Below are positions 1 to 4,942 of a stretch of DNA of 64,000 nt, in pieces (positions within the stretch are counted from its first letter, which is position 1; every line of letters starts with the position of its first letter). Position numbers and translations under genes: made by a program. Origin of the DNA: a virus (Duplodnaviria; Caudoviricetes); the IMG/VR virus record IMGVR_UViG_3300026549_000029, positions 32,001-96,000 of that record; one strand, written 5' to 3'. The notes under the pieces are model-generated. The model worked only from the letters and a program-made list of their open reading frames with translations, was not told the DNA's origin and made no database searches.

Positions 1-1389
1 GATTATAAAAGTGGTAAATATTCTCAGCAGAAACTTGCAGACATTTATGATGTCTGTACTGGTACAGTAGGAAATATTCTTAAGAAAGCAAAAACGAAAG
101 AGGGTGAGGGAATGAAAAGAAAGGGTAAGATTACAACTAAGAGGAATAGAGATAATAAGAAACGGCAGCCTATCATTCCCAAATCAAATACTTCTATTGT
201 AACTACAAATACTACTGCAGAAAATGCTGAAATTTATGCAGTAGTTAAGTTTGTCACTGACATCCCAGTATATGAAAAAGAATTGATAAATAAAAAGAAT
301 ATTATCTGGGCACTATCGAAAAATAGGGATATTAGTGATCTTGGACCTGATCTTTATATTAACTCAAAAAATGATATGAGGAAAATCAATGATCTGAGAG
401 GAAGATATTATTTAGTATCTTTCTCAAATAATAAGCTGCAGTTAATTGATTTCTTTGATGAGACAAATAAAGAAATCATTCCATATGCTCAGGAGACATC
501 TATCCTTTATGAAAATGAGGATGGGATTATTAGTAATAGTCAGATTGTAGAAGCAATTAAAATCATTTTAAAGTATGATAAATCCATTGAAAGAAGTAGA
601 CTTAGATTAGATGATTTTGTACTTGATCCTTCTAAGTTCACTAATCTGCAGAGAATTTTCGGTTTTGATAAATTCTCTTTCAATCTTGCTTCTAAAAATA
701 ATTCAGTAACTGTAGAAGCAGGATTGGTAGCAGATAGGCATAATATGCCTGTTGGAAGATTCATTTATCCTGAAGCATTATCTCAGGATTTGATGTTTAA
801 CTATCCTGAGCAGGAAAGAATTGCTCAGGATTTTCTGAAAGCAAATTTCGATTTTGATCCTGATAGTAATGATAAAAGGATCAAAGTTTTAAAATTGTAT
901 ATTACTGGAATGCAGTGTGCTTTTGCTGCTGTGATGAAGGTGTGTACAGAGATGGGGGTTAATCTAGTTGCAATGCATTATAACTCTGCAACTGGAGGGT
1001 ATGTTCCCCAGTATATTGTGGGACAGGCAGAAGAAACTGGAGCATATGTGAAAGGATTTGATAGAATTCTTTCACAGAAAAGTCTTAATGGAGACATTCT
1101 TCTGTTTAATTGTACTTATGAAGATTTCTCTGAGACTAATATTGACAACTTTTATATCATGGAAGCTGCCAAAATGAGAAATACAAGTAGTACAGATAAC
1201 CAGAAGGATGAAAGCATTATAATTGTGATTAAGAAAAGGGAAGATATTTGGAAGATCTATCCTACTGTATTAGATCACATTATAGATAATGATGGACTTA
1301 ATCTGGCAGTATGGGTAACCACTGCTCGGATTAAGGAGAATAATCTTCAGTGGGGAATGAATATAATTAAGTCATTTAATTATAAATAA
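1..1389 (+). CDS. 5'-truncated protein: N-terminal HTH-like segment, central Rossmann-like domain of unknown function
   Basis: Frame of ORF 112..1389 is open from base 1 (DYKSGKYSQQKLADIYDVCTGTVGNILKK, HTH-like), so the true start lies upstream of the window; central motifs GLVADRH and KLYITGMQCAFAAV...MHYN. Confidence 0.6.
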   Translation, partial: DYKSGKYSQQKLADIYDVCTGTVGNILKKAKTKEGEGMKRKGKITTKRNRDNKKRQPIIPKSNTSIVTTNTTAENAEIYAVVKFVTDIPVYEKELINKKNIIWALSKNRDISDLGPDLYINSKNDMRKINDLRGRYYLVSFSNNKLQLIDFFDETNKEIIPYAQETSILYENEDGIISNSQIVEAIKIILKYDKSIERSRLRLDDFVLDPSKFTNLQRIFGFDKFSFNLASKNNSVTVEAGLVADRHNMPVGRFIYPEALSQDLMFNYPEQERIAQDFLKANFDFDPDSNDKRIKVLKLYITGMQCAFAAVMKVCTEMGVNLVAMHYNSATGGYVPQYIVGQAEETGAYVKGFDRILSQKSLNGDILLFNCTYEDFSETNIDNFYIMEAAKMRNTSSTDNQKDESIIIVIKKREDIWKIYPTVLDHIIDNDGLNLAVWVTTARIKENNLQWGMNIIKSFNYK

Positions 1390-1481
1390 TAACATTTAAA
1401 GGGTGGGTATAAAATAATAATTTACTACTCCTGTAACTAATAAATACAAAGTTGCAGGAGTAGTAAAGTAAAAGATAAAAA

Positions 1482-1543
1482 GGTCTTATTGGATATTATA
1501 CATATATTTTATGTATAGGTAGTTTCGATTACTGTCAAGACTA
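1482..1543 (+). ncRNA. D-armless tRNA-like element (remnant or mimic)
   Basis: GGTCTT/AAGACT acceptor-like stem, TATACATA/TATGTATA hairpin, T-arm GTAGT-TTCGATT-ACTGT; no D stem. Confidence 0.4.
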
Positions 1544-1547
1544 TTAG

Positions 1548-1905
1548 TATCACAGAGTTATTTCCGAAATATGAAGTAGGATAGTAATAAAGGTTTTGGT
1601 TATAAGCAATAGCTCTGGCTAACCAATTTATTATTTATTATAAAATAATAAGCCTTGTTATAAAGCTGTGATGCAAAGAGCTTTAGGAAATGAGTTTTGA
1701 TATATTTTGTAATTTCCTAATATAATGATGGAAAAAATATATCTGGGCAAAGATTTAATATTTATTAAAACTCTAATAAGTATTAAATTGTCCACCACTT
1801 GAGTAACCTATTGAAGAGTGGTATCTAGTATTTATTATGGTACTAGATGTTTTTATATATAATAATAGACTGATCAACTAATATTATATATAGATAAAAA
1901 TACAT
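1548..1905 (+). ncRNA. structured non-coding block 1
   Basis: No ORF; stems ATCACAG/CTGTGAT, TTAGGAAAT/ATTTCCTAA, CCACT/AGTGG, ATCTAGTA/TACTAGAT. Confidence 0.4.
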
Positions 1906-1914
1906 AATACAATA

Positions 1915-1988
1915 CGGGGTGTAGTTCAGCTCAGTAGAACGCTTGATCTGGGATCAAGAGGCCGTGGGAGCGAAGCCCACCACTCCGA
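1915..1988 (+). tRNA. tRNA-Pro(UGG)
   Basis: Acceptor CGGGGTG/CACTCCG; anticodon arm CTTGA-TCTGGGA-TCAAG; T-arm GTGGG-AGCGAAG-CCCAC (atypical loop). Confidence 0.85.
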
Positions 1989-2019
1989 TGCCTAGCATAT
2001 AAAAATATTTTATATAGCT

Positions 2020-2270
2020 AACCTGGAGGGCCAGGCGTTTGGGTTAATACGACATAACCCATTATTTAGTGAAAGAGTGATTGGGCAATACTTCCATTAT
2101 CATGGTGCAGACATGCATAGTATTTATAGAGGAGGTCCCTATAAATATAAAAGGCCAATCTAGGATAGAATCTTCGGATAATCACTGCAGGATACAGTGT
2201 GAACTGAGCATGATAAGACTATCTGAAATTCGGATCATGAGTTAGTCATGGTGGATGCATCATGCAGTAT
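2020..2270 (+). ncRNA. structured non-coding block 2
   Basis: GC-enriched, no ORF; hairpins CCTGG/CCAGG, TGGGTTA/TAACCCA, TATTTATAG/CTATAAATA; long-range CATGGTGCA(2101)/TGCATCATG(2256). Confidence 0.5.
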
Positions 2271-2279
2271 ATTAATTTT

Positions 2280-2353
2280 GGAGCATTAGCTCAGTTGGTC
2301 AGAGCAGTCGGCTCATAACCGATCGGTCCCAGATTCAAATTCTGGATGCTCCA
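2280..2353 (+). tRNA. tRNA with CAU anticodon, likely Ile2 (or elongator Met)
   Basis: GGAGCAT/ATGCTCC acceptor; GTCGG-CTCATAA-CCGAT anticodon arm resembling Firmicute tRNA-Ile2; TTCAAAT T-loop. Confidence 0.9.
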
Positions 2354-2362
2354 CTCTATCTA

Positions 2363-2435
2363 CTCATGGTAGTCAAGCAGTAAAACACAGGACCTTAAAT
2401 CCTGCATTTTGATGTTTCGATTACATCATACCCTA
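2363..2435 (+). pseudogene. degenerate tRNA-Gln-derived element with UUA anticodon
   Basis: TAGTCAAGCAGTAAAACA D region, CAGGA-CCTTAAA-TCCTG anticodon arm, GATGT-TTCGATT-ACATC T-arm; 5' acceptor strand does not pair with the 3' TACCCTA. Confidence 0.6.
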
Positions 2436-2466
2436 TTATTTTTTGTAATTAAAAAGGATAATAAAT

Positions 2467-3057
2467 ATGTCAGAATATAAAAGAGTTTCTTGTCCAAAAG
2501 ATCATCCAAAATATAAAAATAATGGAAAAAGACAAAGAATAGGTGAACATATTTTAATAGCAGAAAAGAAGATTGGAAGATATTTAAAAGATAATGAAGT
2601 TGTTCATCATATTGATGAAAATAAAAAGAATAATAATCCTAATAATCTAATTGTATTTAAAAATGGATCATATCATACATCTTTTCATGATGGAGCAAAA
2701 TTAATACAATTAAATGATGGAACATATATAACAGAAAGAAAAACTATAACAGTAAAAACGGAAAATAATAAACGTGGTGTAAAAGTAATTTGTCCAGTAT
2801 GTAATAAAAATTATATGAATAATTTATCATCTATGTGCAGAGAATGTTATATTAAATCAAATAAAAATTTTAATTATGATATTCCAGAAAAAGAAAAATT
2901 AATAAATAATTTTGTGGAAAATGATTTTAATAAATCTAGAATAGCAAGATTATATAATGTATCTCAAAACTCAATAAGAAAATGGTGTAAAAAATATAAT
3001 ATAAAAGATGTTATAATTAATATTAATATGAGTAAACCTACTAAAGAACGAAAATAA
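2467..3057 (+). CDS. HNH homing endonuclease with Zn-ribbon and C-terminal HTH
   Basis: EHILIAE..IGRYL...EVVHHIDENKKNNNPNNL (HNH_3 type); CPVC...CREC; SRIARLYNVSQNSIRKW. Confidence 0.9.
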   Translation: MSEYKRVSCPKDHPKYKNNGKRQRIGEHILIAEKKIGRYLKDNEVVHHIDENKKNNNPNNLIVFKNGSYHTSFHDGAKLIQLNDGTYITERKTITVKTENNKRGVKVICPVCNKNYMNNLSSMCRECYIKSNKNFNYDIPEKEKLINNFVENDFNKSRIARLYNVSQNSIRKWCKKYNIKDVIININMSKPTKERK

Positions 3058-3071
3058 ATATTAATATTTAT

Positions 3072-3792
3072 TTAAGGAGTGATCTGGTAATACCTTCCTA
3101 TCAATATAGGTTGCTGATGAGCGTAAAAAGGCAGATCTTAGTGTTGATAGTTTAATAAAATCTCCTCCTGTGAATTTTTATTAAACTATATCTTACTATC
3201 TAGAGTATAGTAAGGTTGGGACCCATATACCTATACATGAAGACTGGATATGGAGTTAATGGCAGACATGTCATGCTTATTATGTTTTTCTATTATAGAT
3301 GTCAAAGTTTATAATAGAATTTAGTAACTTCTAATGGTAATCTGGCCAATTACTATTACCTTGTTTCTGCAAAACATATGAGAAAGTACAACTCATAATA
3401 GGGTTTAAAAGAAGTTGCAAGCAGAATATACTGAGATTTTATGAGTTTGATCAGTATATAATGTAAAACTCCTCAAGGGTATAAACAAAGACTGTGTAAT
3501 CTTTGGTAGATATACCCTCTCTTGATTTGCCAGGTTAATGTTAATAAAGGTTTCATCCTAGGCATAGATAGAGTTGGGATGTGAGAAGTCCCTGGAAAAC
3601 TTCGAGAGCAACTAAGCTACTAGATCGTAGTTATAGGCTTGGCTAAGAATCAAGGAGTACTAGCTATCTTAGTAGGGTATAGAAGAATGGGAGAGGCCCA
3701 TCTACTAAAACCGGAAGAGGCAGTAGCTTCTTAGATTGCTTAGATGTAGAAGTATAAAAAATCTGCTGGCAATATATAAAAGTATTGCCAGT
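3072..3792 (+). ncRNA. large ornate structured ncRNA candidate (GOLLD/ROOL-like context)
   Basis: ~720 nt without ORF directly upstream of tRNA-Gln; more than 12 hairpins and nested long-range stems visible. Confidence 0.6.
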
Positions 3793-3802
3793 ATTATTTT
3801 TT

Positions 3803-3873
3803 GCCCCCTTAGTATAAAGGTAGTACTATGGCCCTTGAAGCCAGTGGAAGTGGATCGTTACCACTAGGGGGTG
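3803..3873 (+). tRNA. tRNA-Gln(UUG)
   Basis: GCCCCCT/AGGGGGT acceptor, G73; TGGC-CCTTGAA-GCCA; T-arm AGTGG-ATCGTTA-CCACT. Confidence 0.8.
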
Positions 3874-3878
3874 CTTCT

Positions 3879-3950
3879 CTCCGATTAGCTTAATGGTAGA
3901 GCACTGAACTTTTAATTCAGCTTATATGGATTCGACTTCCATATCGGAGA
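3879..3950 (+). tRNA. tRNA-Lys(UUU)
   Basis: CTCCGAT/ATCGGAG acceptor; CTGAA-CTTTTAA-TTCAG; ATGGA-TTCGACT-TCCAT. Confidence 0.9.
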
Positions 3951-3954
3951 TTAT

Positions 3955-4036
3955 GCTCGGCTGGTGGAATTGGCAGACACAGCGGATTTAAGCTCCGCTT
4001 CCGGAAGGAGTAAGAGTTCGAATCTCTTGCCGAGCA
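3955..4036 (+). tRNA. tRNA-Leu(UAA)
   Basis: GCTCGGC/GCCGAGC acceptor; GCGGA-TTTAAGC-TCCGC; long variable arm; AAGAG-TTCGAAT-CTCTT. Confidence 0.92.
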
Positions 4037-4296
4037 TTAATATTTAATTCCAAGATTTGAAGATATAGGTATTTCTAAAATTAAATATTAATTATATTTC
4101 TATAAGAGATTAATCTCTTATAGAAATAATTTATTAAAAAACTATTTTATTTTTTTTTTTGAATACTTCTATATAATATAAATTCTTATAATCTTATTTT
4201 ATTAAATAAAAAGGTGAAACAAATAATTTAAATAAATTTATGAAATCATTATTATAATTTTATTATATAATATATAAAAAGGGGAGTAAATATATT

Positions 4297-4794
4297 ATGG
4301 CTATTTTTAGTGTTAATGATAGTAGTTTAGGTGAGTATTTGAATGAGCATGGTGGTGCTCATAATAAATATGCAAAAATGATTGCTGATAAAGATAAAAA
4401 ATTAAAAAATAGAGAAGAAGCATTTAGAAATATAGGAACAGATGCTGCTAATGAAAAAGCCGATAAAGCTAGAAGAGAAAGAAACGAGCTTGCTGATAAG
4501 AATTTAAAATACATTGATGATTACGGAAATGATTATATATCTAATGTATATAAAAAGAAAAAAGAAGATGAAAAAAGTGGAAAAACTGTAAACTATTTTC
4601 AAAAGAATCAAAGAACTAGCTATGCAGAAGGTAAAAAGAGATTTAAAAGAGATTTTGGTAGTAAATCTAAAGATACTACTAATACTAATGATAGAAGGCC
4701 TGGAACTTATTTAGATGCTCAAAAGAAACTCAGAGAAGCAGCAGAATATATTCTTTCTGTTCTTGATGAATCTGAAAAAAAAAATGATAGATAA
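4297..4794 (+). CDS. basic protein with MAIF...LNE leader; putative internal head protein
   Basis: ORF with RBS; N-terminus MAIFSVNDSSLGEYLNE; K/R-rich. Confidence 0.55.
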   Translation: MAIFSVNDSSLGEYLNEHGGAHNKYAKMIADKDKKLKNREEAFRNIGTDAANEKADKARRERNELADKNLKYIDDYGNDYISNVYKKKKEDEKSGKTVNYFQKNQRTSYAEGKKRFKRDFGSKSKDTTNTNDRRPGTYLDAQKKLREAAEYILSVLDESEKKNDR

Positions 4795-4942
4795 TAAGGA
4801 ATTAAATAATGCATTTAAAAATGCAGTTAAATCTAAAGCTAAAGAATTATCTAATAAAGGAAAAGTTGTAGATATAAATTCTCTTCCGGATAATGATGAT
4901 AATTATATAAAAGATAAAATTAAAAATAGATTAAATAAATAA
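4786..4942 (+). CDS. small hypothetical protein
   Basis: 3' part of ORF 4715..4942; ATG overlaps the end of the previous gene. Confidence 0.4.

Follow-up and report, generated by a model that had tools for sequence, protein, structure and literature searches.

What is the long stretch without an open reading frame (ORF) that separates a homing endonuclease gene from a tRNA-Gln gene near the start of the window, the 64,000 nucleotides analysed here (bases 32001-96000 of a 287,868-bp (288-kb) IMG/VR phage record with a genome G+C of 27.7%)? The source is a bovine-rumen jumbo phage, and the window opens with an RNA island in which tRNAs, an HNH gene and ORF-free stretches are interleaved (Table 1). 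A preliminary description had placed an ornate non-coding RNA at 3072-3792 (~720 nt), either a member of the GOLLD or ROOL classes or a new large RNA. There is indeed such a stretch, with different limits: bounded by the HNH stop codon (3057) on one side and the start of tRNA-Gln (3803) on the other, it occupies 3058-3802, is 745 nt long and is the largest ORF-free gap of the genome.

Table 1. Features of the RNA island and of the 745-nt stretch (window positions; p, pair probability of the fold)
Feature	Position	Strand	Remarks
425-aa gene	ends 1389		upstream anchor protein
ORF-free stretch	1390-1914		~520 bases
tRNA-Pro	from 1915		
ORF-free stretch	1989-2279		291 bases
tRNA-Met	from 2280		
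Decayed tRNA-Gln	2363-2435	+	aligns with the intact tRNA-Gln of L057 and L061 (alignment A4)
HNH homing endonuclease gene	2467-3057	+	free-standing, 196 aa, HNH_3 and HTH (Pfam)
ORF-free stretch "C"	3058-3802	+	hairpin-rich, transcribed, lineage-specific insertion
Orphan extended Shine-Dalgarno-like sequence	3073-3084	+	TAAGGAGTGATC, no start codon behind it
Two neighbouring perfect hairpins	3147-3216	+	p 0.95, 0.89
First hairpin of the pair	3147-3189	+	14-bp stem, loop with CUCCUCC
Second hairpin of the pair	3190-3216	+	10-bp stem
Helix	3147-3160/3176-3189		14 bp
Helix	3192-3199/3207-3214		
A/U-rich hairpin	3288-3319	+	13 bp, p 0.97
Helix	3288-3300/3307-3319		13 bp
Three-way domain	3324-3418	+	closing 9-bp helix GUAACUUCU/AGAAGUUGC; p 0.97, 0.84, 0.76
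Helix	3324-3332/3410-3418		
Helix	3333-3341/3349-3357		
Two hairpins	3421-3518	+	3426-3459 (9 bp) and 3476-3518 (8 bp around 6 bp)
Helix	3426-3434/3451-3459		
Helix	3476-3483/3511-3518		encloses 3486-3491/3500-3505
Most G+C-rich 3' part	3519-3743	+	GC 0.41; p 0.65-0.99; domain 3519-3608, hairpin 3612-3642, long irregular stem 3643-3743 capped by UGGG/CCCA
Helix	3688-3691/3697-3700		
Intrinsic terminator	3764-3802	+	12-bp stem, 6-nt loop, U-run; ends 1 base before tRNA-Gln
Helix	3764-3775/3782-3793		
tRNA-Gln(UUG)	3803-3874	+	C at position 33
tRNA-Gln, tRNA-Lys, tRNA-Leu	3803-4037		
Strong terminator	4095-4128		downstream of tRNA-Leu (terminator scan)

The stretch does not encode a protein. As previously described, it contains no ORF: the longest frame with a start codon inside 3058-3802 has 32 aa, the three plus-strand frames hold 30, 21 and 19 stops, and reassigning any single stop codon does not yield a long frame. 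A tblastn comparison with the 827 ORFs of the phage and with the HNH family found no protein similarity in it. Its GC content of 0.334, compared with 0.281 for coding and 0.26+-0.05 for intergenic DNA, is a mild excess and no outlier. The Shine-Dalgarno-like sequence near its 5' end has no gene behind it; in the fold its AGGAGU (3075-3080) pairs with ACUCCU at 3468-3473 (p 0.88), a pairing with no comparative support. This orphan ribosome-binding site, and a decayed tRNA-Gln 600 nt upstream which shows that decay does occur at this locus, would fit an origin of the stretch from a gene, or from a run of tRNA genes, that has decayed. We consider such an origin nearly excluded, given the numerous stops, the negative tblastn result and the tRNA covariance model, which is silent in the stretch at E<=10 yet gives the nearby decayed tRNA 24.7 bits. 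ARAGORN makes calls in the stretch at 70% thresholds alone, which also yield "tRNAs" inside the HNH ORF.

Folding supports local structure. All of the complementary segments listed in the preliminary description are present in the sequence, and the local ones were recovered by a repeat search and by the minimum free energy (MFE) fold, with partition-function pair probabilities of 0.84-0.98 for the local helices of 3058-3802. Perfect local hairpins (>=8 bp, loop 3-30) number six, compared with 0.55+-0.69 in 1000 dinucleotide shuffles, none of which reached six; against the genome's own 745-nt windows (2.3+-1.8) the excess is smaller, at about +2 SD. The MFE of the stretch is -206.6 kcal/mol (z = -3.9), and 200-nt windows within it have z of about -2, compared with about 0 for the HNH ORF beside it. 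The inner hairpin of the three-way domain (3333-3357) exposes the palindrome UGGCCA in a 7-nt loop (3342-3348). At the 3' end, the stem at 3764-3802 has four G-C pairs and is followed by TTATTTTTT, as expected of a Rho-independent terminator, and folds with p 0.97; the terminator scan detected it as well.

The ornate architecture that had been proposed did not hold up. There is no excess of long-range pairing: perfect 8-mer complementarity was observed six times and expected 6.7+-2.5 times, which leaves enclosing and long-range helices, as well as pseudoknot candidates, at chance level; therefore a complex tertiary fold is not indicated. The segments of the suggested long-range helix TCTTGATT/AATCAAGG are given other partners by the fold, and the single-sequence fold as a whole consists mostly of hairpins in series with about three small junction domains. 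The argument that G-U pairs favour a plus-strand RNA is likewise weak. The MFE is lower for the plus strand (-206.6 versus -167.7), the z-score is better for the minus strand (-5.5), and the positive GC skew (G over C) is a regional feature; the co-oriented tRNAs and the terminator are better guides to the strand. Two short motifs in the stretch were set aside. The sequence CUGAUGAG at 3116-3123 resembles a hammerhead core but has no match to the hammerhead model and was taken as chance, and the 8-mer TAGGGTAT at 3673-3680 could pair with the decayed tRNA at its 3' end, a complementarity that occurs at chance frequency. Elsewhere in the genome, the densest perfect hairpins (up to 15 per 745 nt versus a mean of 2.3) lie in a 904-nt ORF-free A/T-rich gap (GC 0.20) at genome positions 98,918-99,821 (66,918-67,821 in window numbering, just outside the window), which may be an origin or repeat region.

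Is this one of the large RNAs already described from phages? GOLLD and ROOL fold and self-assemble without protein, and their function is not known. ROOL is a large RNA first seen in cow rumen that is borne by phages and prophages, often in tRNA islands; both RNAs occur near tRNA islands, are abundant and are non-essential where tested (PMC5737381; bioRxiv 10.1101/2024.12.08.627333). The genomic setting here is the same, as this is a jumbo phage and the stretch lies between tRNA-Met and tRNA-Gln-Lys-Leu. The likeness to ROOL extends to the rumen origin, the depth in RNA libraries and the absence from close relatives, and the likeness to GOLLD to a length within 700-800 nt, the phage context and the position beside tRNA genes (GOLLD is sometimes found downstream of tRNA-Met). 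However, neither the ROOL model (RF03087, gathering score 99.1 bits) nor the GOLLD model (RF02032, gathering score 150 bits, mainly the conserved 3' domain) matches the stretch or any part of the 288-kb genome at E<=10, in the case of ROOL in a search with no positive-control match. The stretch is therefore not a member of either family as modelled, contrary to one of the two readings that had been proposed. It also differs from both in lacking homologues: ROOL is widespread in three phyla and the stretch is an orphan. A very divergent GOLLD or ROOL missed by the Rfam models would suit the length of ~700 nt, the rumen origin, the phage host and the tRNA-island position given in the published descriptions, but beyond the silence of both models, the single-sequence fold appears to be without the numerous multistem junctions and the pseudoknots by which ROOL is defined, and we regard this explanation, too, as nearly excluded.

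Other known families gave no assignment. At the gathering score, Rfam 15 matched the tRNAs alone and nothing on 3058-3802, and at E<=10 just three chance matches were found on 2900-3900; the models for group I and group II introns, T-box, hammerhead, RNase P, tmRNA and rRNA have no match on 2900-3900 at E<=10. A group I intron carrying the HNH gene (RF00028) was rejected on this basis, and also on the location of the stretch between genes and the presence of HNH genes without the stretch in relatives. A T-box leader (RF00230) was rejected as well, the terminator being the sole T-box-like element present. The stretch thus belongs to no described family, yet is of a described kind: we propose, by analogy, that it may be ecologically of one kind with GOLLD and ROOL (a large RNA carried by a phage, located in a tRNA island, abundant and non-essential) and unrelated to both.

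The stretch is present as RNA. It was found nearly identical in bovine gut or rumen sequencing runs of 11 studies, six of them metatranscriptomes, and contigs of three RNA runs from three studies (X3, X15 and X16) and of one DNA run (X13) were mapped on window positions 1201-4800. In X3, a single contig at 2300-3770 has a word depth of 734 and a second, at 1457-2173, a depth of 346, compared with 2.1 at the end of the upstream gene (1256-1406), 4.3 over tRNA-Lys/Leu (3863-4115) and 29-34 in the downstream gene (4193-4800). In X15 and X16, the ORF-free stretches alone were assembled, for 3058-3802 as contigs at 3339-3762, 3431-3761 and 3094-3247 (X16 comprises 12 million letters only); the most G+C-rich part is covered by the X15 contig 3339-3762 and the X16 contig 3431-3761. 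The DNA run X13, in turn, has an even depth of 2-6 over the HNH gene, the stretch and the flanks. Where contigs of X15, X16 and X13 leave part of the stretch uncovered, this was not counted as absence. This 20- to 300-fold excess over the flanks is beyond DNA carry-over, and therefore the stretch exists as abundant RNA. The contigs, which give neither strand nor true RNA ends, stop in all three studies at 3761-3770, the foot of the terminator hairpin, a weak hint that the RNA ends there. Two variants were seen within the stretch, T3497C in the apical loop of hairpin 3476-3518 (run X16) and one further in the second X16 contig.

Because the X3 contig joins the HNH ORF and the stretch, and its depth is a single mean, the abundant species in that run could be an HNH mRNA with a long 3' UTR instead of a separate RNA. 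In a broader form, the stretch would be a cis element of the operon, either a 3' UTR that shields the HNH mRNA from 3' exonucleases or a leader that throttles read-through into tRNA-Gln-Lys-Leu. Such a role is consistent with the joint contig at depth 734 and with the terminator that closes the stretch directly before the tRNAs. In relatives, only a short spacer separates the HNH stop from tRNA-Gln, so that their HNH mRNA would have no protective 3' structure, and the unit of HNH gene and stretch is 99-100% identical where the flanks differ by 4-6%, as for a cassette in active spread. The same population pattern would, however, result from the spread of an HNH gene alone, and 745 nt is far beyond the need for 3' protection or attenuation. 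The stretch also matches no T-box or other leader family. Furthermore, the low-depth runs X15 and X16 recover parts of the stretch and no clean HNH contig, which suggests that the RNA of the stretch outlasts that of the HNH ORF. On balance, we find a cis role rather unlikely.

Comparison with related phages indicates how the stretch came to its position. Through orthologues of the upstream 425-aa anchor protein, 13 syntenic relatives were found in IMG/VR, in JGI metagenomes and mainly in ENA and Logan assemblies, with anchor-protein identities of 96% (L057/L058), 89% (L059), 75% (L061/L062), 73% (L064/L065), 68% (L063), 57% (G001/L021) and 52-59% (L066-L070 and L023); L024 is a further close relative, with an HNH protein 88% identical. 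All relatives have the same tRNA array, and the stretch is absent from 13/13 syntenic relatives (anchor 52-96% identical). In L057, tRNA-Met is followed by 8 nt, tRNA-Gln and tRNA-Lys, and in L059, L061 and L024 an A/T-rich spacer of ~20-30 nt leads from the HNH stop codon to tRNA-Gln. Compared with L024, nucleotide homology (89.6%) stops exactly at 3058 and resumes (83%) at 3867, with 808 nt here (the stretch and tRNA-Gln) versus 88 nt in L024. The absence from all 13 syntenic relatives therefore identifies the stretch as a lineage-specific insertion, with a replaced tRNA-Gln, beside the HNH gene. In L024, another presence/absence difference at the tRNA-array locus is an extra ORF right after tRNA-Leu (L024:1104-1283), which we take to be a putative homing-endonuclease-like gene from its sequence; the window phage has a 259-nt A/T-rich gap after tRNA-Leu.

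The neighbouring gene has the features of a free-standing homing endonuclease cassette at the sequence level. Its product contains HNH_3 (E 9.5e-10) and HTH_28 domains (Pfam); among relatives the gene is present, absent or relocated; and the unit is more conserved than its surroundings. In L037, the HNH gene and the start of the stretch are 99.3% identical, versus 93.5-96% for the flanks, and in run X16 a flanking segment (candidate B) has 4 substitutions and 2 indels in 163 nt versus 2 differences in 485 nt of the stretch. A unit 99-100% identical between flanks that differ by 4-6% has the pattern expected of a cassette spreading between strains. SegB of phage T4 is a GIY-YIG enzyme. Its gene, a free-standing homing endonuclease gene inside the tRNA cluster, promotes its own inheritance and that of flanking DNA, and T4 relatives differ by blocks in that cluster (PMC2330249; PMC13096335). 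The present locus is similar in having an HNH gene in the tRNA array and relatives that differ by blocks (HNH gene, tRNA-Gln type and the 745-nt stretch), and differs from T4 segB in that the enzyme is of the HNH rather than the GIY-YIG type, with homing predicted from its sequence. To our knowledge, no 700-nt non-coding passenger accompanies the gene in the T4 case.

The tRNA-Gln genes record the same remodelling. The tRNA-Gln at 3803-3874 is unlike that of any relative and has C33 in place of U33, which is near-universal in tRNAs; judging from the break in homology, it was gained together with the 745-nt stretch. The decayed copy at 2363-2435 reaches 24.7 bits with the tRNA covariance model (2370-2427), below the cut-off of 29, and ARAGORN makes no call there. 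A blastn alignment of window 1300-2420 extends into the tRNA-Gln of L057 (8741-8798). The decayed copy has the anticodon-loop sequence CCTTAAA, and the L024 copy is further decayed. We interpret 2363-2435 as the remnant of the array's original tRNA-Gln, left upstream of the inserted cassette. It had also been considered as an ochre suppressor or a split tRNA; both were rejected, since this relic shares homology with the intact tRNA-Gln located after tRNA-Met in L057 and L061, and this homology accounts for it. Across the group, tRNA-Gln(UUG) occurs in at least four very different types (window 3803-3874; L024:848-920; L057:8741-8814; L002:11060-11131), and tRNA-Lys and tRNA-Leu are 75-94% alike in phages with differing tRNA-Gln types. 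This diversity would fit a homing-endonuclease hot spot at which the gene has been replaced repeatedly, or selection by a tRNA-cutting host nuclease.

The simplest history, as reconstructed from these comparisons, would begin with the entry into the array of an HNH cassette with its own tRNA-Gln; the resident tRNA-Gln would have become redundant and decayed; and the 745-nt stretch and yet another tRNA-Gln would have arrived at the same spot in this lineage alone.

No homologue of the stretch was found in the phage, viral, metagenome and genome collections searched. These comprised 50,697 phage records (blastn at a distant setting), the phage's own genome and all fetched loci (nhmmer and blastn), and the whole 274-kb relative G001 (BLAST), which holds no copy. 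Exact-word scans of IMG/VR (three words of the stretch and one of tRNA-Gln) and of 185,579 species genomes (five words) returned, among the matches listed, only chance words, which for IMG/VR were checked; two word matches in marine metagenome-assembled genomes were read as chance on exact words alone. Since the stretch has no called ORF, protein-indexed collections cannot reveal copies; loci with HNH homologues, orthologues of the 425-aa protein or UvsX yielded the 13 syntenic relatives and none with the stretch. Independent assemblies are identical within the stretch. For now, the stretch is apparently an orphan.

There is a serious chance that the stretch is idle cargo, that is, DNA without function pulled in by homing-endonuclease-driven recombination at a tRNA-array hot spot and transcribed by virtue of its position, with hairpins that make the by-product RNA long-lived and serve nothing. 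This is the main alternative to the reading favoured below, and several observations fit it: among the 13 syntenic relatives and in the collections searched, the stretch belongs to one lineage alone; the locus is in flux, as seen from the decayed tRNA-Gln, the four or more types of tRNA-Gln and the varied positions of HNH genes; long-range pairing is at chance, GC is mildly raised, and the Shine-Dalgarno-like sequence has no gene. Against it, 745 nt of idle DNA is unusual for a phage, the more so as the largest ORF-free gap in the genome, and neither gene nor tRNA remnants were detected in the stretch. With six perfect hairpins it far exceeds the shuffles, a clean terminator stands at the end, and in three studies the RNA depth is well over that of neighbouring genes.

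With a probability of roughly 0.4, we favour the reading that the stretch is a stable structured RNA, acquired and dispensable, which is matured from the transcript of the tRNA operon and acts in trans as an accessory. It would have been gained by horizontal transfer beside the free-standing HNH homing endonuclease and would be transcribed with the highly expressed tRNA/ncRNA operon. Its 3' end would be made by its own terminator or by an RNase P cut at tRNA-Gln, and it would accumulate as a stable RNA above the neighbouring mRNAs. If it acts at all, it would do so as an accessory, trans-acting structured RNA that is dispensable for this type of phage; we infer the maturation, the action in trans and any function from the features of the locus. 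This reading is favoured by the many helices with p >0.9, the hairpin excess, the terminator, the RNA depth, the assembly of the stretch apart from the HNH ORF in the low-depth runs X15 and X16, and the size of the gap. Against it, the stretch has no homologue and so offers no covariation and no sign of long-term selection; close relatives manage without it; and the chance-level long-range pairing, the mildly raised GC and a hairpin number just ~2 SD over the genome background weigh on this side as well. The earlier suggestion of a new large non-coding RNA accordingly agrees with the transcription, the absence of a coding frame and the excess of local hairpins, and finds no support in conservation, with no homologue known and 13 relatives lacking the stretch.

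GOLLD and ROOL provide the precedent that phages carry very large RNAs in tRNA islands. If the structured-RNA reading is true, an unrelated RNA matching them in size, setting and abundance would suggest that this niche has been filled repeatedly and independently. In a bolder version, which by analogy we consider a long shot, the stretch would found a third class of large phage tRNA-island RNAs, forming multimers, for example via the UGGCCA loop at 3342-3348, and carried as exchangeable cargo beside homing endonucleases. Natural strains with and without the stretch, together with a visible route of acquisition (a homing-endonuclease cassette that swaps a tRNA gene), would offer a natural genetic contrast through which to study the role of such RNAs. 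If the stretch is passenger DNA only, the locus still documents the remodelling of phage tRNA arrays by homing endonucleases, with a tRNA-Gln replaced and its predecessor left decaying.

The island as a whole is mosaic, built of exchangeable parts: non-coding modules, tRNAs and HNH genes. The ORF-free stretches at 1390-1914 and 1989-2279 are, unlike the 745-nt stretch, conserved in relatives: L057, L059 and L061 share 78-84% identity with window 1300-2420, and L063 shares 94.9% with 2067-2342, at a different array position. At 1301-1600, z of the 200-nt windows ranges from -5.8 to -8.7. Relatives also have spacers that are not in this phage, one of ~160-176 nt between tRNA-Lys and tRNA-Leu (L057:8891-9066, L061:9772-9931, L063:9451-9626) and one of ~580-630 nt between tRNA-Pro and tRNA-Met (L059:8368-8945, L061:8330-8960). 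In G001, a ~90-nt motif without an Rfam match is repeated directly upstream of tRNA-Met and tRNA-Gln (L002:10526-10615, L002:10880-10975; alignment A2), and its hairpin loop CCATA.. can pair with the downstream ATATGGGCAA, giving a predicted pseudoknot; it was considered as a module of the 745-nt stretch and rejected, as the window has no copy of it. Relatives encode, some 5-6 kb upstream of the RNA island, a GH25 lysin with faint or weak matches to choline-binding repeats (L057:1-726, L059:1-747, L061:1534-2469), a combination that points to a probable Gram-positive rumen host for this group of phages.
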